A DNA stretch of 64,000 bases from Isurus oxyrinchus. Taxonomy: Eukaryota. The DNA lies in NCBI GenBank assembly GCA_026770705.1, contig JANJGN010000009.1, positions 158,038,001-158,102,000 of the forward strand. The letters are read 5' to 3'. Shown here one piece after another: positions 16,963 through 50,040 of this stretch (the first letter of the stretch is position 1; each line of letters begins with the position of its first letter). Below the pieces are notes generated by a model. The model did not search any database. It saw only the letters and a list, made by a program, of their open reading frames with translations, and was not told where the DNA came from. Both the position numbers and the translations under genes were made by a program.

Positions 16963-16996
16963 TGTCTAAGCTTTTCATCTTGCACTCATCAGGACA
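16963..16996 (-). ncRNA. Minimal type I hammerhead ribozyme, intact core
   Basis: Reverse complement: UGUC CUGAUGA GU-gcaag-AU GAAA AGCU UA GACA. Stem I UGUC/GACA; palindromic stem III AAGCUU; UUA cleavage triplet. Confidence 0.75.
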
Positions 16997-17465
16997 CTCA
17001 CAAGAATACCTATATAACGGGGAAAACAACAATTGACACTGTACGTGAAGCAAGTGTTGTTTGGTTGGCAAGTGGTGTTGGTATGGAGATGGTGACTGAC
17101 AGCTGCCAACCATTGTTTAAGATTGTAGTCGGGCGCGCATTATGGCACATTTGCGCATACTGGAAGCAACATGTATACATAGGGCCCTGTTTTTTTGCAG
17201 ACAGAAGAACATGTACGTACATTGTGCCTGTTTCAGCTAAACAAAATAAGTGACAGCTGTTCGCTGACTCATTCCTCAGGACAGTTTCTTGACCAATCAG
17301 GGTCAAGCTGCCTGGTTTAAATGTTAAACAATGCCTGTCAGTTAATTGTCAGTCACCAACAGTGGTGCATTCTCCATGGCAATGCCACTTGCCAATCAAT
17401 CAGCACTCTCTTCACATACAGTATCAATTGTTGTTTTCCCCCTTAAATTAGGTTATTCTCGTGAG

Positions 17466-17499
17466 TGCCCTGATGAGTGCAGGATGAAAAGCTTAGACA
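17466..17499 (+). ncRNA. Minimal hammerhead motif with a stem I mismatch
   Basis: UGCC CUGAUGA GUgcaggAU GAAA AGCU UA GACA; C:A mismatch at the second pair of stem I. Confidence 0.6.
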
Positions 17500-19108
17500 T
17501 GTCTTTTTTTTTCAGCAAAAAACATTAATTGCGATTTCATCATGGTTCTCCTGAATGATGAGACACCATCAAAAAGCACTCTCTGCGCTCTTCTCATTCC
17601 ATTCCTGCACTTCTAACAAGTGAACATGTCATGATAACGTAGAGAAAGGAAACAAACGTTCTCCCAGTCTAGATAAAATCAGATTATCTGTTTAAAAAAA
17701 AAAAAAATTCTTTAGTATGTTAATGCAGTCCTACAAAGCAGCTGTTGTGACACTAAATTCCAGGCATCTTTTTATATTTCTCCTTTTTGATCCAATATTT
17801 TAAATTTATGAATGAAGCTTTGTGCTCTATAGGCTACATTTCTCATAAATGGTGGCTTCTTTCACACTACCAGCAGAATAAAGTATTAGTACATTACATG
17901 GTATAGTGTTTCTGCCCTTAAAAAGCTGCTTCCTCCAACCTACTTAGAAGCACCATGGGAAACCATTTGTATTTATAAATATCTCATCAAAACATAAAAT
18001 ACTTTTGCAAGTAAATATTCAAGGTTCTGTCTGAATTTGGGCAAAAGCATTCACACCAACAATTGTGATGCTCCTGGGAATTCTTTGTAACTGGAATATA
18101 GTGAAACCCTGTAAATGCTCACTGCATGTGCTCCATTGCATCAAATACCTTGAAAATGTACAAACCTTATCTCTGTTTATTCCAATGCACTTGAACAACT
18201 CTTAACATATTGAAGTGCTATAGCCTTGTGGTCAGATTCATCTCTTCTGTGTCTCACTGTCTACTTGCCACTATACATGTCATGTAGCTTCTGTTTAGTG
18301 AATAGTTATGTTCTAATAATGGCCACACATCTATTGAGCTGTCTAGACAGATTGCACAAAAGAGATTACAACACAGAAATCACATACGTGATGAGTTTTC
18401 TAGACTATTTTTGAAGTACATTATGACGTAATGTAGTCCACTTCTGTGGTTCAGCAACTAAATTTTTTTTTCTCTCTCTCCATTACTGGTATTTAGTCCA
18501 AAATCTGCTGCAGCTTTATAGTTTCATTCATAAGGAGATGCCAAGTAAAAGCCACTGATGTCCCCCACAGGGAAGGAAATTGCCCCAGTTTTGCAGTTTC
18601 AAAGCTCCTGGTACGTACCTGCTTCAGAGCAGTAATGTTAGCCTGGAATATCCTGAGAAAGTGGAGCTAAAAAAAAATCTCCCTTTGAAAACAAATTTTA
18701 CTTGAAGAAATGAAGAATATAAAAGAAAATTACTCAACTTTTCTTTCAGCTACAATATTTTCAAGATACTTAATATAATTTCACCCTCCCAGTAAATGTT
18801 CTTTAATCTTAAAAGAAACCATGTTATATGTGAATAACTTGATAACTATTTGATTGCTGGAGTGTCATCAGGAACCTGTCATTGAATTAAGTCGGAGCTG
18901 ATTTGAATGTCAATCCTGAGTGACAGGACCATTCAACAACTGACCGTGAAACTGTGACCATTTGGAATTTCTATTTACAGATGGTTTATTTTTTCAAACT
19001 AAATTCTGGAGAAGGTATTTCACTCTTGTGCTCCCATCTATATGGGAGTTGAATTGCTAATTATCAGTTAACAATCTAAGTACCCATTTTGATGTTTAAA
19101 AGGGAAAC

Positions 19109-19494: not shown

Positions 19495-22400
19495 AAGAGG
19501 GAAAACAGGTGAGGCAAGTTCTCTCTGGGGAGTTTTATGCACCAAAAAACAAAACTTTGTTTGAAGAAGCCAGTCTTGGAGCCAGATATAGAGATGATAA
19601 TACCCTAAGATCTTTAAAAAGGATAGTGATTCCCTGGAAGATAGCTGGAGTCGATACTTCATCAGCACAGACGTAGTGTCCAGTGAAATACCATTACGGT
19701 TGAGCAGACCGTCGATGGAGAAAGTGGAAATGAAGTTGGACGTGGAAAAATGACAAGGCCATTGTATTTGCATAAATTGTAAATCCACGGGTTTTCCAAT
19801 CTGGACACTACTGTATTCCTTTAATGAAACCTAATCTTTCTACTAAGGAAATTAAAGAAGTGCTGTTCACATCAGGGTATAAGAATTTGCAGGACAAAAA
19901 GCCAATTGTGTTAAAATTGCATTGGTGGTTTGCCCACCTCTCTCCCAAAGATTAAAAAATTTGCTAAGGGTTGCAGAAATAAAAGATGGAGAGTACACTA
20001 AACTTATAGAGGAGATAAGTGCTAGGTGTGATATATATAAGAAATACAGAAGGACACCATCTTGGCCGATTAGTGAGCCTGCCCGTAGCAAGGGATTTCA
20101 ATTAAGTTGTGACGTTGAATTTAAAGGTGTGGGATAAAGAAAAGAACATTTTTATTTTGTAGATTTGGCAACAAGGTTTAGCCAGTCAACAATCATATTC
20201 ATTAGAGAAAAGAAAATAATTGTGGATCTGGTTATGGAAAAGTGGATAGGGACCGGATTGGGACCACTGGTAAAATTTCACACTGATAATGGTGGGGGTG
20301 GGGGGAGAGGGGTGGTTTGCTACTGAGTTTCAGGATATGTGAGAAAACATGAATATAATAGTTATGAATACAGCAGCAGAAAGCCCTTTTAGTAACAGTG
20401 TGTGTGAAAGGAATTGCGTGGTGATAGATAAAATGCTTCGTAAGATTTTAGCAGGTAGACCGAGCTGTAAATTAGCATCGGCTTTAACATGGGCTGTCCG
20501 TACCAAGAAGTCACTGCAGATAGTTGGGGGCAATAGTCCATATCGGTTGTTTTTTGTCAGAAATCCAAAAATTCCTTCAGTCCCGAGTGATCATCTCCCA
20601 CCTTGGGAGGGAACTGTGATTAGCTTTACCTTTTCTGAGCATTTAAATGCACTACACGTGTGTGGAAGAGCGTTCCTTAAAACCTAAGTTTCAGAGAGAA
20701 TTCGGTGAGCTCTAAGATACACTGTACAACCATCGGAATCTATTTTTAATCAGGGAGACATGGTATACGATAAAAGAGAAGGACTTAACGAGTGGAAAGG
20801 CCCAGGAAAGGTTATAGGTACAGATGGTAAAACAGTCCCTTTGCAGCCTGGAAACCAGACTATTCAGGTATATTCATCAAGGTTAGTTAGCACAGATTAC
20901 ATATTTGCAGGTCTTGAAGGGATTGTAGGAAGGGATGAGGAACCATGTACTTCTCATTACCATATGCTGCATGATTGTGAGGACCAGGTTGCTGAAGTTG
21001 ATAGGGTATCTGACGATGGACACAGTAATTCGGATGAACAAGGTGAGGCGATTTGTCCTAGAAGACAACTGCCAAAAGCTAGCACTAAAGTTGCATACTT
21101 GCCAGAAGGGGCCAGTCAATGGCGGGATGTGACAATTGTAGATAAAGCAGGGAAGGCCACTGGAAAATATAAAAACTGGTTAAATATACAAGATAAAGGA
21201 CAGGAGGTTAGACCTATGGATTGGGAACATGAAGTTCAAAAATTGATGGCACGGAAACGTAGTATCTGTTCGGACATGGAGTGGGAGTCTAGGAAGAGAT
21301 CACGAACTGTTGAAAGAACATCTATAATACCTTAAATATATACCATATGTGTATGTAGTCCTCAGTCCCAGAAGGGAGGAGATCATCACCCTTGAGTGCA
21401 TCAGCAAAAGGATTGAAGCTTAGCAGGTTTTGGCAAATTGACATACGATAGCGATGTTGTTCCTGCTTTAGTGAAGTGGGGTATGAGGCATGATAGAGGG
21501 TGTAGCTAACAAGGTCAAGGAATATGGCACAGACTGGTAATGCTACAAGGAGCAGAAGAACCCATGTGATCGAGAAGTCTTTGTAGCTTCAAACAAATTG
21601 GACAATAAATTAATAAAGGTTGCCAAACAGTAAGAACTACATAGTTGTAAAGAATTTGGGATATACACAGGTGCCAGTAAGGGACAACCAGCTCTATCTC
21701 ATTAATGGTTATGTACAGAAAAGGTGCTCTCTGATGGGACTTATAAAGCTAAAGCCAGGCTAGTGGCACAAGGGTTTGAAGAAAAATTGGATGACCAGGA
21801 GTAGATTCATCTACGGCAAGAAAAGTTATTCTGAAGATCTTATTGGCTCTGTTAGCTACAAATGCTTGGGAATGTAAGTTTATTGATATTAAAGCTGCTT
21901 TTTTTGCAGGGACATCAACTTCAAAGGGAAGTTTTTCTCCGTCCACTGAAAGAAGCATCATACGCAGAAGGGACACTCTGGAAGTTAAATGTGTATACAT
22001 ACAGTTTAGATGATGTCTCCTGAGTTTGGTATTTCTCAGCGAGGTCAGTTTTATTAAAGTTGGGCTGTCTTCAGTTGGAAGCAGACCTGGCAATGTTTTA
22101 TTGGCACCATGGAAGGAAACTTGCAGGCATCTTTGAGGCGTGTAGACGATTTTTTGTGGAAAGATAGTAGCGAATTTGAAACAGTTGTCATTAATGGGCT
22201 CAGAACAATGTTCAAAATTGGAAGTTAGGCTTCTGGTGTATTTAAATATATTGGATTAGAAATCAGGCAGAGCAGATCATTTTACATCAGCAACCCTACT
22301 TGGAGAATGTCAATCCCATTGCAATTGGTCATGATAGCCCCTCCCAGAAAGATACAGCGGCTTCTGAAATGGAAAAAGAGAAACTCGGGAATCTAATTGG

Positions 22401-23228
22401 GCAACTCAGCTGGCTAGGCAAACAAACAAGGCCGGATGTCAGTTTTGAGGTTTTGGAATTGAACACTAAAATGAATGATCCCAAGGTTGAAGAAATCATT
22501 CAAGCAAACAAAACATTGACAAAATTTAAAATGGAGCAGTGTGTTTTGAAATTTCCATCTTTGGGTGATCTTAGAAAAATGAAACTGTGTTTATTGATGT
22601 CTTATGCAAATCCATGTGATGGATTTTTGAGTTTTTCATGAGGGAAATGGTAAATGTTGCTCATTGGCATGGGAATCTAAAAAGATACAAAGAATTGTTA
22701 CAAGTACATGTCAGCTGAGGCTCTCGCCCTTGTCAAGGCAGTAGATATGGCATTATTTATATCAAAGATGCTGGCCGAAGTATTAAATGAAAAAGGGTAT
22801 TCAGCAACAGCACCTATTGAATGTCTTATAGACAATAAGTCATTTTGCGAAAATGTTCACTCTTATGAAGTGCGTTAACGAAAAGAGATTATGAATTGAT
22901 ATTGCAAGCTTAAAACAGATGCAAGAGAATAAGGAGATTGCCAAGATCAAATGGATTGATAGGAGCTGCCAATTATCTGACTACTTCATGAAAAGAGGAG
23001 CAAGCTCCTGGAAGTTACCTGAGATCTCTAAAGCGGATCTTTTCCTTTGAGAAGACTAAAAGGAATATTATTTTCATGTGGACATTTGTGTTTTTTAAGG
23101 GGGAATAAGATGGATTTATTGAATGGAAAAATATAATATATATTGATATTTGTGTTATGGAAGAGAAGGTCCATCTTTTTTTGTGATTATATATACTGAA
23201 GGGTTACTTTCTTCTTATGAGCGGATTC

Positions 23229-26179: not shown

Positions 26180-27274
26180 TAAAAACAAAAAAACTGCGGA
26201 TGCTGGAAATCCAAAAAAAAACCAGAATTACCTGGAAAAACTCAGCAGGTCTGGCAGCATCGGCGGAGAAGAAAAGAGTTGACGTTTCGAGTCCTCATGA
26301 CCCTTCGACAGAACTTGAGTGAATCCAAGAAAGGGGTGAAATATAAGCTAGTTTAAGTTGTGTTGGGGGGGGCGGTTTGGGTGGGGGGAGAGAGAGAAGT
26401 GGAGGAGGTTGGTGTGGTTGTAGGGACAAACAAGCAGTAATAGAAGCAGATCATCAAAAGATGTCACAAACAACAGAACAAAAGAACACATAGGTGTTAA
26501 AGTTGGTGATATTATCTAAACGAATGTGCTAATTAAGAATGGATGGTAGGGCACTCGAGGTATAGCTCTAGTGGGGGTGGGGGGAGCATAAAAGATTTAA
26601 AAATATTTTAAAATAATGGAAATAGGTTGGAAAAGAAAAATCTATATAATTTATTGGAAAAAAAACAAAAGGAAGGGGGAAACAGAAAGGGGGTGGGAAT
26701 GGAGGGAGCTCAAGACCTAAATGTAAACAGGGCGACCGCTTTGCAGAACACCTGCGGTCTGTCCGCAAGAATGACCAAACCTCCCTGTCGCTTGCCATTT
26801 TAACACTCCACCCTGCTCTCTTGCCCACATGTCTGTCCTTGGCTTGCTGCATTGTTCCAGTGAAGCCCAACGCAAACTGGAGGAACAACACCTCATCTTC
26901 CGACTAGGCACTTTACAGCCTTTCGGACTGAATATTGAATTCAACAACTTTAGGTCTTGAGCTCCCTCCATTCCCACCCCCTTTCTGTTTCCCCCTTCCT
27001 TTTGTTTTTTCCAATAAATTATATAGATTTTTCTTTTCCAACCTATTTCCATTATTTTTAAATATTTTTAAATCTTTTATGCTCCCCCCACCCCCACTAG
27101 AGCTATGCCTTGAGTGCCCTACCATCCATTCTTAATTAGCACATTTGTTTAGATAATATCACCAACTTTAACACCTATGTGTTCTTTTGTTCTGTTGTTT
27201 GTGACATCTTTTGATGATCTGCTTCTATTACTGCTTGTTTGTCCCTACAACCACACCAACCACCAACCCCCTCC

Positions 27275-27305
<31 letters not shown>

Positions 27306-27438
27306 CCCCACCCAAACCCCCCCCCCCCCCCCCCCCCCCCCCTCCCCAAACACACCTTAAACCAGCTTATATTTCACCCCTTTCTTGGACTCACTCAAGT
27401 TCTGTCAAAGGGTCATGAGGACTCGAAACGTCAACTCT
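26180..27438 (+). mobile_element. Young Penelope-like element (Poseidon-type): inverted pLTR, GIY-YIG C-terminus, pLTR
   Basis: 26275-26719 is the reverse complement of 26950-27438. The centre encodes GDRFAEHLRSVRKND-LPVACHFN...RKLEEQHLIFRLGTLQPFGLNIEFNNFRS*. TSD tatagtctggtca (26167-26179) / tatagtccagtca (27439-27451). Confidence 0.92.
26277..26315 (-). ncRNA. Minimal type I hammerhead-like motif with CUGUCGA core
   Basis: Reverse complement: AGUU CUGUCGA A GGGUC-augag-GACUC GAA ACGU C AACU. Confidence 0.65.
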
Positions 27439-28984
27439 TATAGTCCAGTCACATGCTTTCAAAAACCAAAATACTTGCTACTGCTTATCTTTGCAAAACC
27501 CTCAGACTAAAGATGAAAAATTACAACTTAAGTTTGGCAGACAATCTTATTTAAAGTATAGTACATCAAGGTAGCTTGGTGACTGCTTTAAAGACTTGTG
27601 TTCCCTAAATAGTTTTAAAGCATCCAGTTAAATATTAAGCAATAGATGCAGTGTTTAAAGCAGTGTAATTAATTAGCATTGAGGGCTGATGTGACCAAGT
27701 GTTGATTATCATAAATTTGCATTGATTTTTTTTAAACTGTAGATCTAGCTGATGGTTGGGGAATAGACAATACTATAGCCAAAAGACAGCAAATTCATTG
27801 ATTTAGAAACTGCCTCTCTGTTACCATCAGTAAGGGCTAAAGTAAGATCCTGTCCACTACACCTTCCAATAAACATTAATGGCAGCCTAGAAGAACAGTA
27901 TCCACTAACATCTAGTTCCACACATGTTCCATTCAATGTGTTTTATAGTGAATGTATCAACACACATTTTGAATTAATGGATGGGTATGGCTCTACATTG
28001 CTTTTCTGGATATGTTGACTTTGCTTAGAGCAGGTCAATAACCGGTTGTGTACAGGCAAGGGAAGTGAAGTTGAGAGGAAACATTTACTGTGCATTCTTT
28101 AAAGTGATCTTCCAGGTTCCGTTATTTCCACCACTCTTTTGAGTATAGGTATAATAAAAACCATGCGAGTGTTACTGTGATGGTGCACCCCTGTAGCAGA
28201 TCCCAGTTATATCATAATACAACACTGATACAGAGATTTAAAAATATAGACAAAGGCCATACAGAAAAACTTTACCAAACAAATGTGCCTTATACAATGC
28301 ATGTTGTTGTTCTCCGCTTTTCCTGTTCCTGGCTTTTCACATGAGCGCACCTAACCAAGAGAGAGAAAAATCCCTCAAGTATTTCAATTACGCTTACAAA
28401 GGTCAGTGACTGTGGAGCCACAAAAATGGGAGCGGCTGCATATCTTGCTGCTGTGTAGACGGCATAATGAATAGGAGGAAGCCCTGGACTGAGCTTTCTT
28501 TGTTTTGTTTACTGGCACATGTGAACAATTTTTTAGGAAGTGCCAAACAGAAATGTGATGCTATAATGACAAGTTTAAAAAGAATAAAAAATAGTAAGCA
28601 CTAATATATTCTGAATCTGAATATAGTGAGCTTGAGTTCCCAAGGAGAGGCACTCTGGGTACAGTTGCTCTAGGTTTACAGATTCCTCCCCCGAAAAGTT
28701 TTTTGATTTGTATCGCAATAGTAGAAGAGCAGAGCATTCCATGCCGCACCTTCCCTGGTGAGCCTCTCAAGTTGAGCTTGGTTTTGTTCTCGTCCAAACC
28801 TTTTAATCTTCCTTTCAACATGTCTGGGTGAAGGTCTTGCCACTCTGATCTATTACATTACAATTCACAGCAGCTTCCTGAAATTAGTAGTGTTCAGTTT
28901 TATTTTAAATTTGTGCTTTAATTTTTATTTGTGTAGAAAGGGAATTAAGTAGTCATAGAATGAGAGTTCAAGAAGGAAAGAGCC

Positions 28985-29870
28985 AAGAGAATCCAAGTGG
29001 GAATGAGAGTAAAAGTGCATCTGGATCCAAGAAAAGCAAATTGGAGTATTTTCTTAATGAGAGACTATAAACTGTGAAGAAGAAGAAAAAGGATTTGGGT
29101 GTCCATATGAACTGATCACTGAAATCTAGCACACGGGTACAAAACGCTAATGGAATGTTGGCTTGTATCTCGAGATGGCAGTTGGATTGCAAAATTAAGA
29201 AAATTATGTTTCATTGAGTAGAACCTTGATCAAATCCCCAGGGTACTGTGTTCAATTTTGGACACCAAACCTCACAAAAGACATATTAGCATCCTTGGAG
29301 GATACTCCAGGGCTTAAAGGTATAAAGGTATAAAAAACCAGGTTGCAAAAACTTGCTTCATATTCTGAGTTTATATAGTTGAGGGATAAGCTAATTGAGG
29401 TCCTTAAATGGTATTGGGATTCAATAGGGTACCAACAGAGAAACTATTTCCTCTGATGTGGGAATCCAGCATAGTGTTAAAATTAGAGCTAAGCCATTTA
29501 GGAGTGAAATCAGGAAGCATGTTTTTTACCCAAAAGGGGCATAGTGGAAACCTGGAACTCCCTTTCCCTTCACACTCTTCCCCACTCTAAAACTCAGTGG
29601 TCGGTCAAACGAAATTTTCAAAACTGAGATAGGTGAATTTTTGTTAGGTAAGAATATAGAGAGATTATAAGAACTAAGAGTATGCAATTCAGCCCCTCAA
29701 GCCTGCCCCGCCATTCATTGCGATCGTGGCTGATCTCATTTCAGCCTTGACTCCGATTTCCTGTCCTCTCCCCATAACCTTCCAACCCATTACAAATTAT
29801 AAGATATGGTTAATGGAAGCAAAATGGAGTTGAGGGAACAATTATCTAAGATGTAATTGAATGATGCATC
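28985..29870 (+). mobile_element. Degenerate CR1 LINE, with a short minus-strand CR1 tail at ~29665-29800
   Basis: DLGV, ANGMLA, YCVQFWTP, EKLFPL remnants. Confidence 0.7.
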
Positions 29871-29899
29871 AGCGCTGTATCACTAGGCTGAATGTTCCG

Positions 29900-30632
29900 A
29901 TAGACTCAGATGTCTACAACACAAAAGGAGGCCATTTGGCTCATCGTGTCCGCACTGGTCAACAAAGATCTGACTATACTAATCCCATTTTCCAGCGCTT
30001 GGCCCACAGCCCTGGAAGCTATAGCAATGCAAGTGAATATCTAAATACTTCTTAAATGTTATGAGAGTTTCTGACTCAACCACCCTTTCAGGCAGTGAGT
30101 TCCAGACTCCCACCACCCTCTGGGTGAAACAATTTCTCCTCAACTTCCCTCTTAGCCTTCTACCTCTTACCTTAAATCTATGCCCCCTGGTTATTGACCC
30201 CTCTACTAATGGAAAAAGTGCCTTCCTATCCACCCTATCTATGCCCCTCATAGTCTTATACACCTCTATCAAGCCTCCTCTCAACCTTGGTTGCTCAAAG
30301 GAAAACAACCTCAGCCTATCCAACCTTTCCTCATAGCTTAGACCCTCCAGCCCGGGTAGCATCCTGGTAAATCTCCTCTGAACCCTCTCCAATGCAATCA
30401 CATCCTTCCTATAATGTGGTGACCAAAACTGCACGCAGTACTCCAGCCGTGACCTAACCCAGCATTTTATACGGTTACAGCATAACCTCCTTGTTCTTGT
30501 ATCCTATGCATCTTCTAATAAAGGCAAGTATCCCATATGCCGCCTTAATCATCTTATCTACCTGCCCTGCTACTTTCAGGGATCTATTGATATGCACACC
30601 AAGGTCCCTCTGAGCTTCAGTACTTTCCAGGG
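29900..30632 (-). mobile_element. CR1 LINE 3' part, relatively well preserved
   Basis: ORF 29979..30434: QFWSPHYRKDVIALERVQRRFTRMLPGLEGLSYEERLDRL...TRGHRFKV...FTQRVVGVWNSLP. Confidence 0.92.
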
Positions 30633-30646
30633 TCCTATCTTCTTAT

Positions 30647-30818
30647 CACAAAACAAAAACAGAATTACCTGGAAAAACTCAGCAGGTCTGGCAGCATCGG
30701 CGGAGAAGAACAAAGTTGATGTTTCGAGTCCTCATGACTCTTCAACAAAACTGAGTAAAACTAGGAGAGGGGTGAAATATAAGCTGGTTCATCCGCAGTT
30801 TTTTGTTTTTATTTTTGT
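30647..30818. mobile_element. Minimal Poseidon-type Penelope pLTR fold-back insertion
   Basis: Same pLTR sequence as 26180. Exact 14-bp TSD tcctatcttcttat (30633-30646 / 30819-30832). Damaged hammerhead at 30714-30752(-). Confidence 0.88.
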
Positions 30819-31118
30819 TCCTATCTTCTTATGTTTTCCACCGATAGAAATTACTCGTCAAAAAGTTAGTTTGTTTCTAAGCTGGGTGTGGCACTCCAAA
30901 AACACCAATAAAAAGAAAATGATGAATTTCAGTGTAGATGGGATAGATTTTGTGAAGACATTTTTGTTGACAAAACCCCAATTTGAAGGAAGTGACAAAC
31001 TGAGTTTAGTTCAATGCCATGCAACTATTTTCAGCAAGGTATAATTCATACCTGCCCTTTTCTCTCTGGCTGCTGCAGATCAGTCATCTTCATTGCCAGG
31101 CAGATGTCAGTGTTTTAG

Positions 31119-31560
31119 CTGTACTGGAACAGTTTGGCTAGGGGTTGGGCTAATTCCAGAGCATGAGACTTCAGTACTGTTACCAAAATGTTTTCGGGGC
31201 CCATTGCCTTTGCAGTATCCAGTGCCTTCAGCAGTTTCTTGATATCACGTGGAGTGAATCGAATTGGCTGAAGCCAGGCATCTGTGATGCAGTGGTCCTC
31301 AGGAGGAGGCCGAGATGGATCATCCACTTGGAACTTCTGGCTGAAGATGGTCGTAAATGCTTCACCCTTTTGCACTGACGTGCTGGGCCCCCTCGTCATT
31401 GAGGATGGGGATATCTGTGGAACCGCCTCCTCCTCCTGTTAGTTGTTTAACTGTCCACCACCATTCACCTGGCAGGACTGCAGAGCTTAGATCTGACCTG
31501 TTGATTCTGGGATCACTTAGCTCTGTTTATCACGTGCTGCTTCCACTGTTGTATCGCAGC
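31119..31560 (-). mobile_element. CR1/L2-group LINE internal ORF2 fragment
   Basis: ORF 31115..31399: IRFTPRDIKKLLKALDTAKAMGPENI--VLKS-A-ELAQPLAKLFQYS, the pre-RT region. Confidence 0.85.
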
Positions 31561-32259
31561 CTATTGATTAATTTATTCAGTATCTCAATCTAAACAAAAA
31601 CCTATATTGGACATTAAATTTTAAAAAAAGGAAATGCTTGGCATCAGGCTGCGTTCTTTAGTATTAAAAATCAGATAACTGTGAAATATGTTATCCTTGG
31701 ATTAGCAGTTTATATTGAAGTGCGTCACTTTGAATAATAACTGAATGTAGCTGGAGAGAATAAGAAGGAATTAATGCTTTAGAATTCTGCAATGTTGGAA
31801 TGAACCTGAAAATCCATTATAGAAAATGCATTCCTTGCCTAACCCAAATTCTTCTGCGCATGATTGCTTACTACCGAACATGAAAAATTAACTAATGGAA
31901 ATTAATGATTTGCAGTCTTTCTCAGTTTCATATTTCCTCTTGTCCCTTGTAGTTCTGTTAATTAGTTGGAATGAAAGCAGTGGCAGTAAAATTCATGTTT
32001 GTACGAGTCTTATTTGTAAATATAAAATAATATGCAGAATGCTCTTATCTTGTGAATGCTAAGACCCCTCTCCATATTTAATTTACTGTTTTACTATTGC
32101 AGGTATTGTAGAGGAACCCTACAGACATTCAGTTCATGGTTCTATTCATAAGATCCAAAACTAAATTGGATATGTTTTGATAGCTGATAAAGGGTACTAC
32201 CATATTTATAGTGTATTTTTAACTTGCTCTTTCTCTATTGCTTTTACCTTTAGAAGCTA

Positions 32260-35200
32260 TGTGAGGGGACTTATAGATATCCTCTTGGCTATTTCTAAAA
32301 TTTTTAAAACTGGACAAAGACCTTTTAAAATGGCTGAAGGTATTTCTGCTGTGACACGTGAACAAAAGGGACTACCATGGTAGTATCGCAGAAACTTGCA
32401 CCTCATTGTCTCTTAAGAGACACCAATCCCTGTGGGATGCTGACCAAATTCAAAGAAAACTATACCAAGGGCAATTTGCATTTCATAAGCCAGGCTGATT
32501 AACCGGAGTCTGCTCATCACTAGGACAAAGGGCCTTACAACTTTCCTTTCAAGTCTTTAATGTTTGGAAAGTTTAACCATCCCAGGGACCTGGACAAGCG
32601 ATACAATCACTTGTCAAAGACAATGTAGAGAGGTGGGAATCACGATGTGAATCTCTAGCTGGAGGAACCAGTCATAGTGCCTTGCTGTACTGAAAACTTA
32701 GTCTGCCTTTTTTACCATCTAACTAGCTTTATCATAGAAAAGGGGCTCTGCCCAGATGGAATACCTGGCCTCCATTGGCACAGTTTCTACTGGAACTTCT
32801 GTCCCATCGCCTACAAGACTGATTCATCTCTGCGTGCTTATCTCATTGTGTGAAGTCAACTCCACTGGAAAAGTGAATTATACAAAATCAGCTATTAGCC
32901 TGCCAAAGGACTACGTTATTGGACTTTGATGCTGGACTCTGGAACCCACGTGAAACACCATGTCTTTCCTCTGTGGTCTCTGCACTGTAAATCTTTTCTC
33001 TATCCCTCTTTTACTGTATGAATGCAAAGGGGGAAACGTTGCGACCCCACTCCAATGTTTGAATGTGTGCAAATAAACTAACCCTTCGAGTTCATCCTAT
33101 CTCGAGTTTGCTGTGGGGTTATTAATAGAAAATTGGATCAAAGCTGAGGGGTTGGGAAATACATCACCAGCTAATGAGGGGGAAGCAAATCAAAATACCT
33201 TTCTGTTTACAGGTGGTAAGAGGAGAAAGTGGTGTGGTTTAAATTAACCCCCCACCCCCTCCTGCCCATTACAGAAATTGGGGGTCTGTGCAGGATCACC
33301 AATTTGAATTTGACCAGAGTCCAAGCAGACACAAGCCAAATCTGAGATAAAAGAGCCAATTGGAAACTAAAAGGGAAAAACATAAATTTTCAAACACTAA
33401 CTTACCACAGCAAATTCCTTTTTCCTAACACTAAGAAAACGACAACCTTTTGATGCCCGTAAGTAGTTCCAGCAAGGAAATTTGAACAGTGAAACTTTAG
33501 CGGTCCTTCGCACAGAGCAATTGAAAGCTGTAGCTAGGGAGGTGCAGTTAAAATTGCTTAGTAAAGTGAAGTGAACAGTTCGGATTGTTGTTGTTAGAAT
33601 ATTTTGAACTCCCATTACTGATAGTTGGATGTAGAGCCCATCCATGACTCCGAATCCCTTCCCTTAGCTATAATTGAGCTGGAAAAGCTCAGAATGCAGC
33701 TAGAACTTCAGGAGAGGGAAAGAGAAGTGCAGGAGAGGGAGAGAGAGAGCAAGGGAACAGGAGAAAGGGAGAGAGAATTCCAGCTTCAAAAATTGGAAAT
33801 GGAGCTAGCAGGTGAAAGGGGGGGGGAAGAGAGAGAGAGACCAAACAGCTGGAAGCTGTGAGGCAAAATCTCTCTGTACGCCGTAGTACCCCCCCCCATC
33901 TCTCTGAACCAAAACCACTTTCTTGAGGCCCTGCTAAACTCATTTCCAAATTTGAAGAGAGTGATGTGGAGTCTTTTTTTTTCTACTGTTGAGAAAATAG
34001 CGGGACGGCTAAAATGGCCATCGAACATCTGGACATTTTTAATTCCAGGGCAACAGTCAGGGAGAGCCTAGGAAGTCTACTTCAAGCTGACTCCTGATGT
34101 GTCCTTGATTTATGAGCAGACCAAGGCTGCCATTCTAAGTGCGTAAGAGTTAGTCACTGAGGCATACCGCCAGCAATTCCAGAGCGCTCATGAGAAGCCC
34201 ACACAAATCTACATCAAGTTTGAACAGCTGAAGCAAACTGCATTCCACCAATGCATAAGGTCCCAAAGAATCCCTCACACCTATGAGAGGTTGCATGAGT
34301 TGGTATTATTAGAGGAATTTAAAAATTGCTTACCCTGCAACCTGTGGACACGCTTGGAAGAGCAGAGAATCCTCAGAGCCTGGAATGCAGCTGTCACAGC
34401 AGACAGCTACAATCTCAACCAGAGGACTGGAAACTCAGGAAGACTCTTTCTAATGCCTGTGGGAATGTTTTTTAAAGATATGCAGGATGATCTAGATAGG
34501 AAAGGCCCCCCACCCACTAAAGAAAACACAAATGAGCGTGTGTGAAGCCCTGCTGCGGCCACAAAGGAGAACCCCCAGAGACCAGTGTGTTGTTATTGCA
34601 ATAAAATAGGCAATTCCAGATCTGAGTGTTGGAGATTGCAAGGGAAGCTCGTAGGTCTAAAAGGGTTCCATATGAGTAGTCTCCCGACGGATGCCGCAAT
34701 GGGTAGTGCAGCAGAGCAGACAGAGACTCTCACTATAGAAATTAAGCCTGCCTTTGGAGGACATGGCACTATGTGTGTCTGAGCCAGACAAACTCCCAGA
34801 GAGCTTCTGGAGTTTAGTCCTTTCAGGAACAGTGTCTCCCTACCCGTACCAAAATGTGAGCAAGTCCTTTGCACTGCTCCAGGACGTAGGGGCCACTCAG
34901 TCCTTAAATGTTAGAGGGAAACCTAAACTAAACCTACCCTCCCTTCACCGTACCCCGCCCCCTGAAGGCCAAAGCTCTGATCAGTGGAGTGAGAGGAGGA
35001 TCTGTGTTTGCACCCCTATACAAGGTCTACCCAAAGTGTGACCTCATTTCAGGCTGTGTCATGGCAGGAATCATCCCTGAACTACCAGTAGCAGGAATTG
35101 ATTTCCTCCTTGGAAATGATTTGGCTGGCAGCAAGGTGTTGGCCGGCGAAAGAAATGAGGCCCACGTCAGCGAGCAAAAATCTGGGGAAAGTTCAGAGGC

Positions 35201-35377
35201 CCAAAAGGGTTAAATAGCACCCATAAACATTGAATCTAAAATAGATTGTGTATTCCAAAAAAGTCCTAGAACAGGGAAGGAGATAGTGAGGGAGAAAAAC
35301 ACTTTTTTCTGTTTATAGTCAGGTGGTGAGAGGAGAAGTTAGTGCAGTTTAAATTAATCCCCCTCCTGTTTGTAACA
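32260..35377 (+). mobile_element. Gmr1-like Gypsy LTR retrotransposon, internally deleted (5' LTR, gag, protease, 3' LTR end)
   Basis: Exact TSD GCTA (32256-32259 / 35378-35381). 5' LTR TG...CA at 32260-33273. PBS at 33279-33296 matches the tRNA-Pro PBS at 13/18. Gag coiled coil, PKFEESDVESFF...WP...EAYRQQF...LVLLEEFKNCLP (SCAN-like). Knuckle CYCNKIGNSRSEC. Protease LLQDVGATQSL...FLLGNDLAG. 35285-35377 repeats 33175-33273. Confidence 0.9.
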
Positions 35378-37344
35378 GCTAGCATGTAAAACAAGAGATT
35401 TGGAAGAGTTGCCTCAAAGGTGATTTTTTGCGGCAGGAACACTCAATTGGACGGTAGATGACCACTCTGGCTGTAATTGCAAGTTTATTCCCCCACTGGG
35501 ATCAGTATTCCAGGTGGTTATGAGCTCGAGTGAAAGCATTTGTTGCTGGCTGAAACTCACTATGAAGTGCAAATTTCTGGCTCATTAGCTTTCCTTCATA
35601 ATTTACAGCCTTGTAATTGTGCCCACTGGAATTTATATGGATTTTATTTGTCCTGGAATATTACTATGCTTTTAGTTTTTGGCTCATGCAAGAATGCATT
35701 TTTTTTTTAAATGCCATAATCTGATAAATTCAGCCAAAGCCCTGAATTATTTTCCATTATCAAATTCCAGTACCCTGCTATTTTATTTTAAAAAGCATTG
35801 CCTAAAGTTTTAGAATTTTTTCCACTTTATTTTCATCTCTCAATTATTTAGCAAGAATCCGTAGTGCTGAATCAAGGGTTCAAGCATATTCAACGTGTGT
35901 ATAATGCTGGGAATTTTGGAACTGTTTGGATAAGGACATTGTGTAGAGACTAAACTGCTGTTCATTATCTTTTCAACATTAGGCATTAAACTGATATCTG
36001 TACTGAAGAGATACAGCTCTGCAGTGAAAATTACTCCATCTATATTGTGGGGCAGTTGCTATAGCACCAGGAACCACACCTAAATAACTTTGTGCATATG
36101 CTTTCCCTGTACAGAGTAAGTTTGAGTACTCAGCACACCTTGACCAAATAAGTTGGCAATAACTAACAGCAATTACTCACCTTGCCCTCTGGAGTGACGA
36201 ATTTGTCAATGGGTATGATCTAACCCAGTTTCAACAAAGATTCCACCCAAAACTTCTATGTTCTCTTCTCCACAAGTTGCTGAGTGTTTCCAGCGTTCTC
36301 TGTTTCATGTTTAGATTTGTAGTATCTACAGTATTTTGCATTTTGTTCAATAAGTTAAAATCAATTATTTTCATGACCACCTCCAATGGGAAAGCTTATT
36401 AAACTTGCTACTGATAGTGTAGCTGCTACCAGCAGCAATAAATTATTAACCCCAAAAATTTCCAACTAATGGGAGAAGGTGAAGCAGCCAGATATAGTCA
36501 TAAATAGTGAAGACAATAAACTTGTCTGTGCACATTTTTTGTTTTATGCTAATATCAAATCCACCCTACAACATAAAGGGTGCAAGTTTCAAGCAAGAAT
36601 TCAGCTGGCAATGCAGATCCTGTGTTGCACAACATAAGCATATAGATGGTTATAACAGAATCCCGAGAAGATTGAAGCTATCATAATTAGCATTCTGTTG
36701 AACACCATTTTCATTGTTTTTTTGAAGAGGAAGGGTTGGAATATGTGATACAGGTGCTTTCAGTGTTCTAGTGTTAATTCTAATCACAGCAAATAGTCAG
36801 CGGGAGGCAGTGAGGAGGGTCAGCTACGAAAACTTTAGGTGATGAGGCCACATGAAGATGCAGAGATTGAAACTATTATTTGGGGGACAAATAATCAGTA
36901 TGAAGCAGAATAAAACTGAAGCGTGGTGCAAGTCTGGACCCATTCAGCCCTGATTCAACTTCACTGACAATGATAAGGGTTGAGATAATATCTGCAATTA
37001 TCATCATATTTTCCAAGAAAACACAAAATTCTTTCTTTCTTTCCATCTTTCAAATTGTCCTGCAAAATTCTTGGAAGTTATTTTATGCACATCCTCTGGA
37101 GTATTCTTTTAAAAATAAAAGCAGTTATCAATGATGCTGCTCTTTTAAAAGGAAAAACTATGTTGCCTAAAATATGATTTTTGAAGTTATTTGTGTCATA
37201 CCCTACCTACCAAGCAGGCAGTGCAATGAAAAACCTTTACATTTCAGTAGCACTTTCTGGTTTGACATATTGAATATTTTATAACCAGCTGTTCTGGATA
37301 CTGCTAGCTTTATTTATCTTATAACAACTGTTTGTTTTTAATCT

Positions 37345-37895
37345 TGCCAGAAGGCACCACCTCTGCAGCAATCCTTATACATCACAAGCATCACCTTCCT
37401 AACCACTATCTGGGACTGAACCAACTTAATGTCCTTTCATGTCCATCAGCTTCCAACTCAAAATTCACCCCATCTCTGAAGCAACTTACTTCTACCTTTA
37501 GGACATTTCCTGTCTGCACAGTACCTCAGTCTGCTTGACACCAAAATCTTTATGACATTGTCACCTCCAGAGTCAGCTGTTCCATTGTTCTCCAAACCAG
37601 CCTCCCATTCCTCTACTATCCATAATCTTCAGCTCACCCAAAATTCTAATACTCAGTCCAAGTCCTATTCACCTGTCATCCTGTCTTTGGTAGTCTTCTT
37701 TGGTTCTCAGCCCCTAATGCCTCACAATTATAATTCTGCTTCTTTTGTTTAAATCCTTCTTGGCCTTACCTCATCGAGCCTATACTCCTCCATCCCCCAG
37801 ACTTTGTTCTGACTCCAGCTACTTGTTCATCACCATCCATTCCTCCTCTCCACTCCCCTCACTGGGAGCCATGCCTTCACCCAGCTGGGCCTCAC
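37345..37895 (+). mobile_element. L2 LINE fragment, old
   Basis: STIHNLQLTQNS remnant; parallels 12860-13540. Confidence 0.6.
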
Positions 37896-38637
37896 CGTTA
37901 TCAGTTTAGCCTTGGAAGGAATGTGTTGAGCAGTGGGCAGTGGTGACTGAGCATCTCTTGTGCCTTGATGTATTGTGAGTAAAAGTATTAGCTCCAATTC
38001 ATTATAACCTCTGTTTCTCTGCTTCAGCTACAAACTTATTTTTCCCTTCCTCCTACTAGATGCACTAGCAAATAAGCTGGTATACACTTTGGTGGTAAAC
38101 AGATGTATTTTACTCAGAAATGTTCCGACCTGCTCGTATTTCTAGTACACCCAGACAAATTATCTATTGGAAACTCAGATAAGTGATAGGAAATTTTAAA
38201 AAGATGTGAGGAAATATTGCTGTTTAATGGTGCTCCATCGAAAACCCCAACAAACTGGTTTATAAATGGTCAAATTTACCTGAAAGCAGGAAAGTCTAGA
38301 ATGTCAATGAATATTCTGTTCAAATTCCTATACTGTGTGCATCAATGCCGTACAATTACGCTTGCTTCTAAATCCAGATGTCTGATAGTGACTTTAACTG
38401 TACCTTAATTATGTTAAATATAATCTACATCTCACTTGCATACACTGAATACTTGCAGCCGAGGAACGAAACAAAAAGCAAAATTTTTTGAGAAATTCGG
38501 CAAATCTTTCACCAACCAAAGAGGCTAAAGTTTTGTTTGCATTTTTATTTTCTCTCTTGGATTCTTGATAGATAGCAAATATAAACAGTGCGCTCAAGCA
38601 TAATATGACAATTGGTGCATTGTATCTCATACTGATC

Positions 38638-38725
38638 AAGTTCTCATGAAAGGTCATCAACCTCTCTCTTCCCAGATGCTGCATGACCTGCTCAGTATTT
38701 CCAACATTTTCTGCCATTATTTCAT
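38638..38725 (+). mobile_element. Old Penelope pLTR remnant with a dead hammerhead
   Basis: agttctcatgaaaggtc...cagatgctgcatgacctgctcagtatttcc; core is CUCAUGA and the GAAA is lost. Confidence 0.55.
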
Positions 38726-39219
38726 TGCAGCACACCCTTCTTCTAGAGTGGAGCAGTCAGTTCCAAATTAACCATAAAGTCACCAGCTTGGATAGATTTT
38801 GCTCTTGCTGATGGACTTAGCAGTTAAGAGTGGTGCTGTGCCAACAGGTCTGCATTTGATTTAGTACAATATTTGCCATTTAAATGAAGTGTAGCACTAA
38901 ATGGCAAGTGTAGGAAATTGAAGAGTTGATCAAAGAAGAGATCGCTTTTAAAGTAGGCAGAGGGGCTACAAAGCAGGTGACAACTCATTAAGAATTCTAG
39001 GGGAAAATGCTAGTGGCCGAACAAGCAGCCACCATTGCACTAGGAATAAATGGAAAGTAGTAGTCTCGGGTTAGAAGAGCAGAGACTACATGCAGCAAAT
39101 TAAGGCAGGAAGAGATCATTAGAGACTGACATTTGAAAGCAGTGACAAGGATTTTGAAATTGTGTACTGGGACTAAAGGAGTTTCAGGGGTACAGGATTA
39201 AAGAAACATGAGGTTTAAT

Positions 39220-39490
39220 GCAGCTAAATCTAAAGATTAGAGCCAAAGCAAGATTAGGAAACACCTCTACAGACAAAGGGGGTAGTTGAAGTTTGGAACT
39301 CTCATCTGCAAACAGTATATGATGCTAGATCAATTGTAAATTTTAAATCTGAAATTGTTAGGCCTTTGTCATCCAAAGGTATTGAAGGATATGAGGCAAA
39401 GACAAGTATTTGGAGTAGGGTCACAGATCAGTTAGGATCTCATTGGCAGAACAGGCTCAAGAGGCTAAATGGCCTACATTGTTCCTGTGT
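39220..39490 (+). mobile_element. CR1 LINE 3' end
   Basis: gtttggaactctc...gaacaggctcaagaggctaaatggcctac. Confidence 0.65.
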
Positions 39491-39833
39491 AAGATTATAG
39501 CCTGTCACGCTAAAGCAACTGAACCTTAAAAATGTGCAAAAATTTAGGTGTGGAAGTTGTGGAATGGGCTTTCTACAGGGCCAGTGGAGGCAGACAGTGT
39601 GAAAAAAATTGACACTTGGATAGATATTTATGGATTGGGATACACAGAGAGTTTCCCCCACTGGAAAGACTGCAGAGTCTTCTCTTGATCCTGTGTTTTC
39701 CTATGTATTTTACTACGTTTTTCAATTAAAAAAAATTAATATCCTGATGCCAAATGTTCATTTGGAATAACATTAAAGTAGGGATTAAACTAGCATTTTT
39801 TAAGTTCTAAATGTTCCCTGGGTTTGGTTACAG

Positions 39834-40064
39834 GCACAACACAGAGATCGTTTCATCCAAGAGCGCTATGGAAAATATGACATCAGTGACCCATTCCTTG
39901 CTCTACAGAGGGATTGTGAGTCGGTCAGGGATGGCAATCGTGGTGACAAGCAGCCTGTGTGCACCAACCCACTGTCAGTGCTCAAGGTAGTAATGACACA
40001 GTGCAAGACGATGCAGGAACGAATGGTATCCCAGTTGGCTGCTGCAGAAAGCAGACACAGAAAG
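39834..40064 (+). CDS. CTTNBP2NL: CTTNBP2NL coding exon 2 (77 aa, CortBP2 coiled-coil domain)
   Basis: Not in the ORF track; read manually. ttacAG|GCA CAA CAC gives [77 protein letters not shown], then donor GTATTG at 40065. 231 nt. Confidence 0.96.
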
Positions 40065-40241
40065 GTATTGTAAAACATTACATTGCATGTACCTCATGTT
40101 ATGCATTAAGCTAATCTTGAGGAACTTACAGGGTTACACACAAAAAAACCGGGGTGTGGGAGTCAGAGAGTCAGCACAACTAAAACCGGCTGAATAGCCT
40201 CCTTCTGTATTGTAACTTCTATGATTCTATGATTTCACATC

Positions 40242-41022
40242 CAGTGTGAAAAACAGAAAAGCAAAGTATTATTTAAATGGTGATATATTGGGAAATGTGG
40301 ATGTACAAAGGGATCTGAGTGTCCTTGTACACCAGTCAATGAAAGTAAACAGACAGGTACAGCAAGCAGTTAGGAAGGCAAATGGTATGTTGGCCTTCAT
40401 CGCAAGAGGATTAGAGTACAGAAGTGAGGATGTCTCACTGCAGTTATACAGGGCCTTGGTGAGACCAGACCTGGAGTATTGCGTGCAGTTTTGGTCTTCC
40501 TACCTAAGAAAGGATATACTTGCTATAGAGTGCAGCGAAGGTTCATTAGGCTGATGCTGGGGATGGCAGGACTGTCATATGAAGAGAGATTGGCTTGACT
40601 GGGCCTGTATTCACTAGAGTTTAGAAGAATGAGAGGGGATCTGATTGAAATGTATAAAATTCTAACAGGGCTAGAAAGACTAGATGTAGGGAGGATGTTT
40701 CCCCTGGTTGGGGAGTCTAGAACCAGGGGCCACAGTCTCAAGATATGGGGCAGGCCATTTAGGACTGAGATGAGGAAAAATTTATTCACTCAGGATGGTT
40801 AACCTGTGGAATTCTCTACCACAGAAGGTTGTGGAGGCCGGGTCACTGAATATATTCAAGAAAGAAATTGATAAATTTTTGGATATTAGGGGCATCAAGG
40901 GGTATGGAGAGAAAGCAGGAATATAGCGTTGAGATAGAGGATCAGCCATGATCATTTTGAATGGCGGAGCAGGCTTGAAGGGCCGAATGGCCTACTCTTG
41001 CTCCTAGCTTCTTTGTTTCTAT
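40242..41022 (+). mobile_element. CR1 LINE 3' ~0.8 kb, young
   Basis: ORF 40246..40554: RDLSVLV...KANGMLAFIARG...LYRALVRPDLEYCVQFWS. 3' UTR gggccgaatggcctactc, then a (tttctatg) tail. Confidence 0.93.
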
Positions 41023-41804
41023 GTATTGGAATTCTGTTTCTAGTACTAAACCTGACATTAGATCAAATATAAGTGCAAATTAACAAAAGACATTTACTAA
41101 TGGAACAGTACTTAAGTATTTTGCTTTAGAATTGAAAGTCTCCTCACTTGTGATTTCCTCTCCTTATGTTGTCTTGGCCTGTTCCTCTGTCATAAGCCAT
41201 GAGACAAGCAAGTAACCTGTTCCCAGTCGTCTTATACAGGTTTACCATTACCATTAAGGATGGGAAGAAAACTAAGCAGAATATGTCACCTTTGAAATTT
41301 CTGCCAACTCTTTCTCTTCTTTCTGTCTAATGATTCACTCATACTCAGGATGCCATTGTTTGGGAAACTTAGGAAGTGAAAATTACACTCTGCACCCTTT
41401 TGTAGATTTGATTTTAATTCAGTGGCCTAGTTTTTGCACTTTTGGAGAACAGGACAGGTCACTCATTTTTCAAAAATGTCGCCAAGACATTTTTTTTTAT
41501 TTAATTCCAGTCACCAACTCTGAACTGGCAAATGTTTGCTGCAGTTGGCGCTCTCATCCTTACTGCAAGAAGTAGATCCATAACAATGTTGTTCTATGAT
41601 TTCTAAGGATAAAGGCTGAGCAATTTTAGCAATGTCAGTGCAGAGCTGGCACATGAACACGGGTCTGACGATACCAACTGAAAAATTGCCATTGTGGCAT
41701 TTCTAAAGATTAAGCCTGTTGCAATTTTTTTTCACCCTTCCTTTGAAAGTGCCCCTGTTATGATCCGGTTAGGGACTGTTAACATTTTTCCTTGGCTCCA
41801 GCTA

Positions 41805-42200
41805 TTGTCAGAGGTGTAACTTTCATCTACCATCTCTTGAATGGATTCCTCAGAGATGCCACAGGAATTCACCAAGGTTCCTTAGACAACTCCTTCCAAA
41901 CCCTTGACCACTACCATCACCTAGAAGGACAAGGACAGTAGATAGATGGGAACACCACCACCTGGAAGTTCCCCTCCAAGTCACTCACCATGCTGATTTG
42001 GAAGTATATTGCCATTCCTTCACTGTCACTGGGTCAAAATCCTGGAACTCCCTCCCTAACAGCACTGTGGATGTACCTACACCACATGGACTGCAGTGGT
42101 TCAAGAAGGCAGCTCAGCACCGCCTTCTCAAGGGCAGTTAGGGATGAGAAATAAACGCTGACCCAGCCAGCGAAGCCACATCCCGTGAATGAATTTTTTA
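41805..42200 (+). mobile_element. CR1/L2-group LINE 3' end, (ATGA)n tail family
   Basis: Homologous to 3855-4297; ends cacatcccgtgaatgaat. Confidence 0.8.
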
Positions 42201-42994
42201 ATAAGTCCCTTGTTCTAGTTACATTTTCAGTACTTCTAAGCTAATCAGCTGGTTGCTCTCTTTGTCACAAAACATTGAGAGGTCCACAATAGATTCTTCC
42301 ACTAGAATCAAACTAGACAATCTTCCAGTTCACAAAATTCAAACTGAGACTAAGCCTCACCCACATTCCACACAGTAAATGATGAAGTTAGTTTTTCCTC
42401 TGCTTATGGTGCAGGCCAAGCTAACTATCATTTACTTCGGTCATAGTGCAACCGCACCAGGTCCAAATTGCAACTACTGAGCTTGGATGGTCTGCGTTCC
42501 TTTATATAGCCTTTCAGTCTGGCTGGAAGTTTTGATTTCCAATCCTCAGGTTCAGTTTTTGTTTCTTCACAAGCAGGGAGGGTCACTCCCCATTGCATGT
42601 TTCCCTTTTTTCTTTTTCCATTCCATTTTCTGTTTTCAGTTAGGTCATGCATTGTTTAAGTTCCTGCACCCGTTGGTTATAGTTCTTATCTCTTCTATTC
42701 TGACCTTTTTAAGTGTTTATATTGCCTTTACCCCATTTCCTACAGTTAACGTTAATTTGAAAACTGCAAGTTTTATATTCTAAAGCACATGAGCTAGAGC
42801 ATGGATTTTCATCCTTGAGGCGGGTAGCAGGAGTCAGGGAAGTTAGATTGGCCTGCCTGCCTTGAAAGTGTTCACAAAGGCGGGATCTTTATTGCCTAGG
42901 GCGGGTACAGGCTGGAATTGGGCCAGTTGACCCAGGGAAAAGTTTGATGCAACCACGGGCTGCCGAGTGCAAAGGCAGGCTGTTTGAAAGGCTC

Positions 42995-43579
42995 AAAACA
43001 AAAACAGAATTACCTTGAAAAACTCAGCAGGTCTGGCAGCATCGGCAGAGAAGAAAAGAGTTGACGTTTCGAGTCCTCATGACCCTTCAACAGAACTGAG
43101 TAGTATTAGGAGAGGGGTGAAATATAAGCTGGTTTAAGGTGGGGGTGTGGGGGGAGAGAAGTGGGGGTGGGGGGGGTGGTGGGGTGTGGTTGTAGGGACA
43201 AGCGAGCAGTGATAGGAGCAGATAGCCTTGTTCACCTTCATTGCTTTCCATTTCTCTCCTAGTGTTTGACAAGGTGTTTACTATAATACCACCTTCAACA
43301 CCTCTTTGTTCTTTTGTCTGTGACATCTTTTGATTATCTGCTCCTATCACTGCCTGCTTGTCCCTACAACCACCCCCCCCCCCCCCCCCCCCCCCGCCCC
43401 CCCCAACCTTAAGCCAGCTTATATTTTACCTCTCTCCTAATACTCAGTTCTGTTGAAGGGTCATGACACGAAACTTTTTTCTTCTCCGTCGATGCTGCCA
43501 GACCTGCTGAGTTTTTCCAGATAATTCTGTTTTTGTTTTGGATTTCCAGCATCCGCAGTTTTTTGTTTTTAACTATATA
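42995..43579. mobile_element. Poseidon-type Penelope pLTR fold-back insertion
   Basis: 42995-43224 is inverted relative to 43334-43538. 12-bp TSD tttgaaaggctc (42983-42994 / 43580-43591). Confidence 0.9.
43059..43097 (-). ncRNA. Minimal hammerhead-like motif with CUGUUGA core
   Basis: Reverse complement: AGUU CUGUUGA A GGGUC-augag-GACUC GAA ACGU C AACU. Confidence 0.65.
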
Positions 43580-49827: not shown

Positions 49828-50040
49828 ACAAAAGCAGAAACTACAGGTGCTGAAGGTCCAAAGTAATAGCAGACATGTTGGAAGTACTCAGCAGGTCAGG
49901 CACCATCTTTGGGGAGAGAAACAGAGTTAACGTTTTGGATGAAAGGTCACAGACCTTTTCATCAGAACAGAACTTTAACTCTGTTCCTCTTCCACACAGA
50001 TGCTGCCTGACCTACTGAGTGCTTTAATCATTTTATGTTT
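49828..50040. mobile_element. Older Poseidon-type pLTR fold-back (canonical CUGAUGA core, GAAA mutated)
   Basis: tactcagcaggtcaggcaccatc...cagagttaa is inverted relative to ttaactctg...gatgctgcctgacctactgagt. Reverse complement core gttctgatgaaaaggtc. Confidence 0.7.

Follow-up and report, generated by a model that had tools for sequence, protein, structure and literature searches.

The window analysed here, a 64,000-nucleotide (nt) stretch of the genome of the shark Isurus oxyrinchus (assembly GCA_026770705.1, contig JANJGN010000009.1, positions 158,038,001 to 158,102,000 of the forward strand), contains three insertions of a Penelope-like element (PLE) whose pseudo-long terminal repeats (pLTRs) carry motifs resembling a minimal type I hammerhead ribozyme, but with U instead of A at core position 6 (U6 and A6 below, the change being written A6U). 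The features concerned are the following, with coordinates counted from the first letter of the window:

26182–27438, strand not assigned: insertion 1, head-to-head PLE 3' ends, with a 13-bp target-site duplication (26167–26179/27439–27451)
26277–26315, minus strand: hammerhead-like motif (minimal type I, intact) in a pLTR, core CUGUCGA (U6, C7), GUC site
26719–26957, plus strand: C-terminal GIY-YIG part of the element open reading frame (ORF), its last 80 codons, inside insertion 1 (residues 786–865 of the element protein P0001, in two frames)
27398–27436, plus strand: hammerhead-like motif with U6 and G8A (CUGUCAA; CpG-type decay); insertion 1 stops right after stem I
30647–30818, strand not assigned: insertion 2, short pLTR with a short inverted tail and a 14-bp duplication (30633–30646/30819–30832, 14/14 matching)
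30714–30752, minus strand: decayed hammerhead-like motif with U6, reading UUGUUGA (C3U), with GAGUC in stem II and ACAU replacing ACGU
42995–43579, strand not assigned: insertion 3, head-to-head pLTRs with a 12-bp duplication (42983–42994/43580–43591, 12/12 matching)
43059–43097, minus strand: intact hammerhead-like motif, core CUGUUGA
43446–43475, plus strand: hammerhead-like motif with U6 and a deletion that leaves stem II incomplete and removes the GUC site
49905–49975, minus strand: older decayed fold-back relative from a more distant family, with CUGAUGA (A6) at 49959–49965 (minus strand)

A direct sequence check bore out the coordinates that an initial annotation of the window had given for the five pLTR motifs, with a T at core position 6 in five out of five. 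The core was described there as a fixed CUGUYGA; U6 is indeed found throughout, but only three of the five motifs read CUGUYGA and only two are intact. The three insertions were rightly taken to be independent, as target-site duplications of 13, 14 and 12 bp were found, the first of which matches at 11 of 13 positions, both mismatches being compatible with CpG decay; the GIY-YIG part inside insertion 1 is 98% identical to P0001 across residues 805–865. Finally, the older relative reported near position 49950 does contain CUGAUGA, but it belongs to a distant, decayed fold-back family and is not a direct ancestor. A further old pLTR copy, decayed and with a damaged core, lies at 38641–38700 (plus strand).

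Stems I and II, the GAAA, the palindromic 15.2–16.2 positions and the NUH site of minimal type I hammerheads are all present, and the core departs from the consensus C3 U4 G5 A6 N7 G8 A9 at position 6 only, the remaining core bases agreeing with it. The motif shares with the minimal type I hammerheads described in metazoan PLEs (Cervera and de la Pena 2014, PMC4209133) its location in the pLTR, a short stem I, an extra base after A9, a G10.1–C11.1 pair, the GAAA, the palindromic 15.2–16.2 that replaces helix III, the NUH site, a U-rich upstream region and an occurrence mostly as single truncated copies. In contrast, the consensus given there is CUGANGAH, with A6, and the core change described there is U3–A8, whereas the shark family has U6 or C6; the searched rows of that alignment contain no CUGU, CUGC or CUGG core, those inspected all having A6, and no shark row was seen among them. 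Because the layout fits these hammerheads but the CUGANGAH consensus fails, we regard the motif as a hammerhead-derived variant whose membership of the active ribozymes is unproven. No hammerhead was matched when the window was scanned with 4,227 Rfam families at E values of up to 5, a result that the minimal form may explain, no A6 control having been scanned.

At a genomic locus designated L041, three same-strand motifs spaced 3.35 kb apart form a tandem array in which every flanking motif reads CUGUCGA. Positions 6539–9133 of L041 encode 865 residues from stop to stop, with a reverse transcriptase (RT) followed at the C-terminus by a GIY-YIG endonuclease (EN) in a single frame: the RVT_1 match scores 33 bits (cut-off 29.6) and the GIY-YIG match 20 bits, under its 22.6 cut-off (E 8e-4), with a visible YIGET motif. 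The ORFs of two neighbouring units are 99.1% identical over 2,598 nt, and the best named homolog is an uncharacterised protein of the bamboo shark Chiloscyllium punctatum (69% identity over 69% of the query). Judged from its sequence, the element is an EN-bearing (EN+) PLE, as indicated by this ORF together with tandem pLTR units, inverted truncated copies, a tail and target-site duplications. The RT–EN linker of P0001, CPRKRCNTC, is a CX4CxxC form and fits the CX2-5CxxC of Neptune and Nematis elements, the type, Neptune or Nematis, being set by the linker motif. As described by Craig et al. (2021, PMC8557442), Neptune and Nematis EN+ PLEs likewise combine an RT with a C-terminal GIY-YIG, a CX2-5CxxC motif, partial tandems, an inverted 5'-truncated copy and an optional tail, but the hammerheads described there are canonical, unlike those of the shark lineage. 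Since the tandem units with an open RT and GIY-YIG frame bear U6, U6 was present in active masters; the initial annotation had made this claim, which is upheld by the CUGUCGA-flanked 865-residue frame and by the genome counts and subfamily ladder given below.

The assembly (4.98 Gb) was searched with an exact 33-letter pattern allowing any letter at positions 6 and 7, which gave 74,467 matches; its reversed control matched nowhere. Tabulating position 6 genome-wide, a check that the initial annotation had proposed, shows that U dominates these matches (72,764), with A in 111 and C or G in 1,592 (the last by subtraction). Looser patterns returned 7,667 A6 motifs, from older subfamilies, 3,238 motifs with C or G at position 6, and 6,068 U6 motifs carrying older loop II sequences. 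A tail pattern lying outside the ribozyme matched at 149,095 places; when 130 tail-anchored copies, drawn for the most part from contig C1 (first 3 Mb), were picked regardless of the ribozyme, the core was readable in 85, with 69 U, 11 A, 3 C and 2 G. U6 is real and family-wide, and not a matter of chance. Assembled (Logan) contigs of public runs, nearly all of guessed RNA status, coded as organisms A, B, C and D (4 contigs for the last) show no non-U letter at 1% or more at position 6, the likeness filter working against distant A6 relatives; U also prevails in the runs that bear the codes of other organisms, with runs X16–X18 contributing small shares (X18, 4 contigs). Note that a T-to-C change at L041:6232, which turns a stem II G-U pair into G-C, amounts to 1–5% of depth in X1, X7 and X9 and to 0.1% in X19.

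Clustering of 171 copies retaining the upstream pLTR, a search-enriched sample and hence not informative on family sizes, yielded 14 subfamily motifs, 4 with A6 and 10 in the U6 clade; c17 (3 copies, a deletion variant) was excluded from the tests, leaving nine U6-clade subfamilies. The neighbour-joining tree, built without c18 (the four-fold-site analysis also excludes c9 and c11), has the shape of a ladder, with A6 ancestors followed by the nine U6-clade subfamilies, one of which moves on to C6, and the U6 clade spans 0.15–0.23 neutral substitutions per site. The 39-nt motif of the oldest U6 subfamily differs from that of its A6 sister c9 solely at position 6, and 2 of 74 four-fold sites differ between the two. 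Between the oldest and the youngest U6 subfamily (mean divergence of the latter, 1.6%), 22 of the 184 four-fold sites have diverged, as have 9 of the 339 second positions and 39 of the 254 untranslated-region sites; the excess at four-fold over second positions (p 5e-5) shows that the ORF has been under purifying selection after U6 arose. U6 predates the young subfamily, with some 12% four-fold-site divergence since its origin, and position 6 changed again, to C, in a side branch, two points that had escaped the initial annotation. The side branch is subfamily c16, where C6 is found in 9 of 11 copies (core CUGCUGA; e.g. L092, L095 and L100) alongside upstream letters of its own; because c16 combines the two, a C6 master must also have transposed.

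The only places where the motif changed across the nine subfamilies are position 6, N7, H17 (which went from U to C), two sites in loop II and one A-U pair that became G-U; c1, for example, has U6 with GUU, and c10 has U6 and C7 with GUC. For comparison, 19 of 40 sites vary upstream and 6 of 15 just downstream. Free sites of the motif changed in 4 of 8 cases and core bases in 0 of 10 (p 0.023), and core-plus-stem sites changed in 1 of 30, this one being the pair-keeping A-U to G-U (p 0.004 against free sites). At the neutral rate, 4.4–6.9 core-plus-stem changes would be expected, the probability of observing at most one being 0.008–0.07. The fold is therefore still constrained, since the changes that followed A6U hit free positions and left the other ten core bases unchanged.

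Folding predictions did not separate A6 from U6 subfamilies among the 14 subfamily motifs. With the isolated 39-mer, the predicted probability of stem II is 0.94–0.99 in 12 of 14 motifs and that of stem I 0.10–0.66; with flanks, both stems drop to 0.14 or below in the majority of subfamilies, whether A6 or U6. Just upstream of stem I in the youngest subfamily, L041:6195–6206 repeats GGACTCGAA from the 3' half of the motif; in read-through RNA, folding predicts that this repeat pairs with the 5' core into a hairpin, and it may be a template-jump by-product or a switch.

An RNA cut after GUC would yield copies starting at AACU, a pattern that we counted genome-wide. Among young copies, 226 start at the cleavage site and 79,889 are intact; the position 5 nt upstream, used as a control, gives 177 starts. 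The peak of 5' ends sought at the cut site was not found in young copies. By eye, 30 of the young cut-site loci were sorted into inversions (19), internal deletions (7) and direct junctions (4). A6-type tails start at the cut site in 16 cases, versus 2,311 intact, and inspection of these 16 loci gave 8 inversions, 5 internal deletions and 3 direct junctions. The ends lie elsewhere: 91 of 176 anchored copies end near the motif, and 33 of these 91 start within −4 to +2 of the first base of stem I, versus 2 at the cut site. Six public runs (X19, X7, X15, X1, X9 and X18) also show loose ends before the first base of stem I. At this base (L041:6207), and in a genome-wide sample, the 5' ends and fold-back points of short insertions gather in an initiator-like context. 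As the ends avoid the cut site and gather at stem I, copies were likely made, before A6U as well as after it, from uncut (or religated) RNA. A candidate transcription start, which would give strong-stop-like short complementary DNAs (cDNAs), is the first base of stem I. A splice-acceptor reading of the 5' hotspot was set aside, the flanks being variable and the A of AG usually kept.

A comparable situation has been described for the Poseidon element of Anolis carolinensis (Frangieh 2024, PMC11167929), whose hammerhead core mutants insert normally in vitro, whose reverse transcription starts internally and whose hammerhead cleaves only with the protein. The shark element resembles it by its tandem pLTR–ORF units, the tail downstream of the hammerhead, the likely copying of uncut RNA and the lack of cut-site ends; it differs in that protein-aided cleavage is shown for Poseidon, which belongs to the Poseidon clade and has a hammerhead overlapping the ORF start, whereas the shark element has a CX4CxxC linker and U6. 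As for the effect of position 6, at 0.3 mM Mg2+, A6C lowered the observed rate constant (kobs) of one fast hammerhead from 0.3 per min to 3.55e-6 per min, and it spared activity in Mn2+ (Naghdi 2020, PMC7151607), the natural A6C phage ribozyme was reported with a kobs below 0.1 per min (Perreault 2011, PMC3088659), and in deep mutagenesis of a type III hammerhead, activity was low for almost every mutant with one or two changes in the CUGA turn (PMC9901934). The phage Bcep176 hammerhead (PMC3088659, PMC7151607) is a natural change at the same position, and the CUGCUGA of c16 is the same substitution; however, it is one phage sequence with measured activity, low in Mg2+ and good in Mn2+, whereas U6, known from sequence, has become fixed in an animal retroelement across tens of thousands of copies. 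No per-variant A6U rate was found in the published mutagenesis supplements searched. Many PLE-linked hammerhead variants are reportedly covered by the study of Lunse et al. No natural A6U was found in the literature searched, where A6C is known; subscription papers, repeat databases, bioRxiv supplements and Lunse et al. 2017 lay outside this coverage and may list it.

The initial annotation had left a choice between a functional core variant and a family that transposed without self-cleavage. The insertion ends favor copying from uncut RNA and the pattern of changes favors a constrained fold, so that the truth probably lies in between. The reading that we prefer, and to which we give roughly even chances, is that the motif is a weakened ribozyme whose cut is probably dispensable for making new copies and whose fold is retained. 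Transcripts would likely begin at or near the A of stem I, and reverse transcription would likely initiate in the tail, some 60–110 nt downstream, and proceed through the motif on uncut RNA. In magnesium, A6U would likely make cleavage much slower, the effect that A6C has on other hammerheads, and any residual cutting would be slow, dependent on dimers formed via the ACGU palindrome and aided by the protein of the element. What likely preserves the fold is that the element still benefits from the RNA shape, from low-level cutting or from both.

Several observations weigh against this reading. The ten unpaired core bases taken alone are not significantly conserved (1.5–2.3 changes expected; probability of none, 0.10–0.23), and the search anchors favor conserved motifs. 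In the tail 16–55 nt downstream, where conservation is about as strong, 3 of 40 sites vary; what constrains the motif may thus be something other than catalysis. The cut-site rate of A6-type copies is 2.4-fold above that of U6 (p 0.003), with small numbers, differing patterns and no A6 control position; since A6-type copies also seldom start at the cut site, insertion ends say little about the rate of cleavage, and religated circles would equally leave an intact site. The start-site reading is based on insertion ends and the initiator-like context only. Finally, weakening by A6U, although likely, is extrapolated from other changes at position 6, no A6U rate having been found.

A possible but doubtful alternative is that the motif has been catalytically dead since A6U and is kept as an internal promoter located at the start site, to bind the protein of the element or to define cDNA ends for fold-back, the family transposing without self-cleavage. 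Position 6 changed twice, from A to U and then to C (9 of 11 c16 copies); the cut site shows no peak of ends, the start of the motif coincides with the 5'-end hotspot and the tail downstream is equally conserved. In some predicted folds, moreover, U6 would let the core pair with the GAAAC strand to give an inactive rod, and Naiads, according to Craig et al. (PMC8557442), proliferate unhindered without canonical hammerheads. A dead motif accounts poorly, however, for changes that spare the other core bases and land on the free sites of a hammerhead (p 0.023), or for H17 becoming C after U6 arose, which gave GUC. GUC is generally the triplet cleaved best.

In a further reading, which we consider unlikely, position 6 is free, A, U and C all having been carried by transposing masters, and the remainder of the catalytic core is still selected; U6 would be a working natural core variant, dependent on protein or manganese and tuned to keep the RNA whole for copying, with cutting only once the protein of the element has bound it. 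There is a rather slim chance that U6 is fully functional, cleaving at about the A6 level with protein, dimer or Mn2+, at a step that leaves no trace at insertion ends, such as tandem processing, circularisation or translation control. The persistence of the rest of the core and of the stems over 0.15–0.23 neutral substitutions per site speaks for full function. So do the Mn2+ activity of the A6C phage ribozyme, a natural variant (0.31 per min at 1 mM; PMC7151607), and the anole PLE hammerhead, which requires its protein for cleavage (PMC11167929). Against it, changes at position 6 gave low activity elsewhere (PMC3088659, PMC9901934), no compensating core change accompanies A6U, the oldest U6 motif differing from c9 at position 6 alone, and minimal PLE hammerheads, which lack stabilising loop contacts, are described as slow even with A6 (PMC4209133). 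The idea of an A6 family whose five copies in the window mutated by chance can be dismissed almost entirely, being refuted by the genome counts (72,764 U6 versus 111 A6 exact copies) and by open-frame tandem units flanked by U6 motifs.

The role of hammerheads in PLEs has been called unclear, and their parasitism of these elements has been proposed (PMC8557442). The shark lineage amounts to a dated natural experiment, with A6, U6 and C6 subfamilies one core base apart, each represented by genomic copies and the youngest with an open ORF. That tens of thousands of copies were made after the core change suggests, on the strength of the copy counts, that the cut is weak or unneeded for transposition. 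If U6 is slow or dead, the family provides genome-scale evidence for the strong expansion of an EN+ PLE without efficient self-cleavage, matching the in vitro result in the anole; should U6 cleave, the core consensus of hammerheads has to be broadened. In either case, descriptors based on CUGANGA overlook about 10 times more copies than they find (72,764 U6 with one exact pattern, 7,667 A6 with a looser one).

As for the rest of the window, a 593-residue open stretch at 53307–55088 (plus strand) matches the CortBP2 Pfam family (E 5e-7) and is likely a large exon of a gene of the cortactin-binding protein 2 family, in which the Penelope-like insertions may be intronic. Long inverted repeats at 7480–8353 (98% over 360 nt), 13749–13935 and 16914–17518, with a second family near 13.8 and 17 kb, are possibly other fold-back elements. 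Broken reading frames at 20343–22641 (plus strand) resemble, by eye, a decayed retroelement with integrase and RT.

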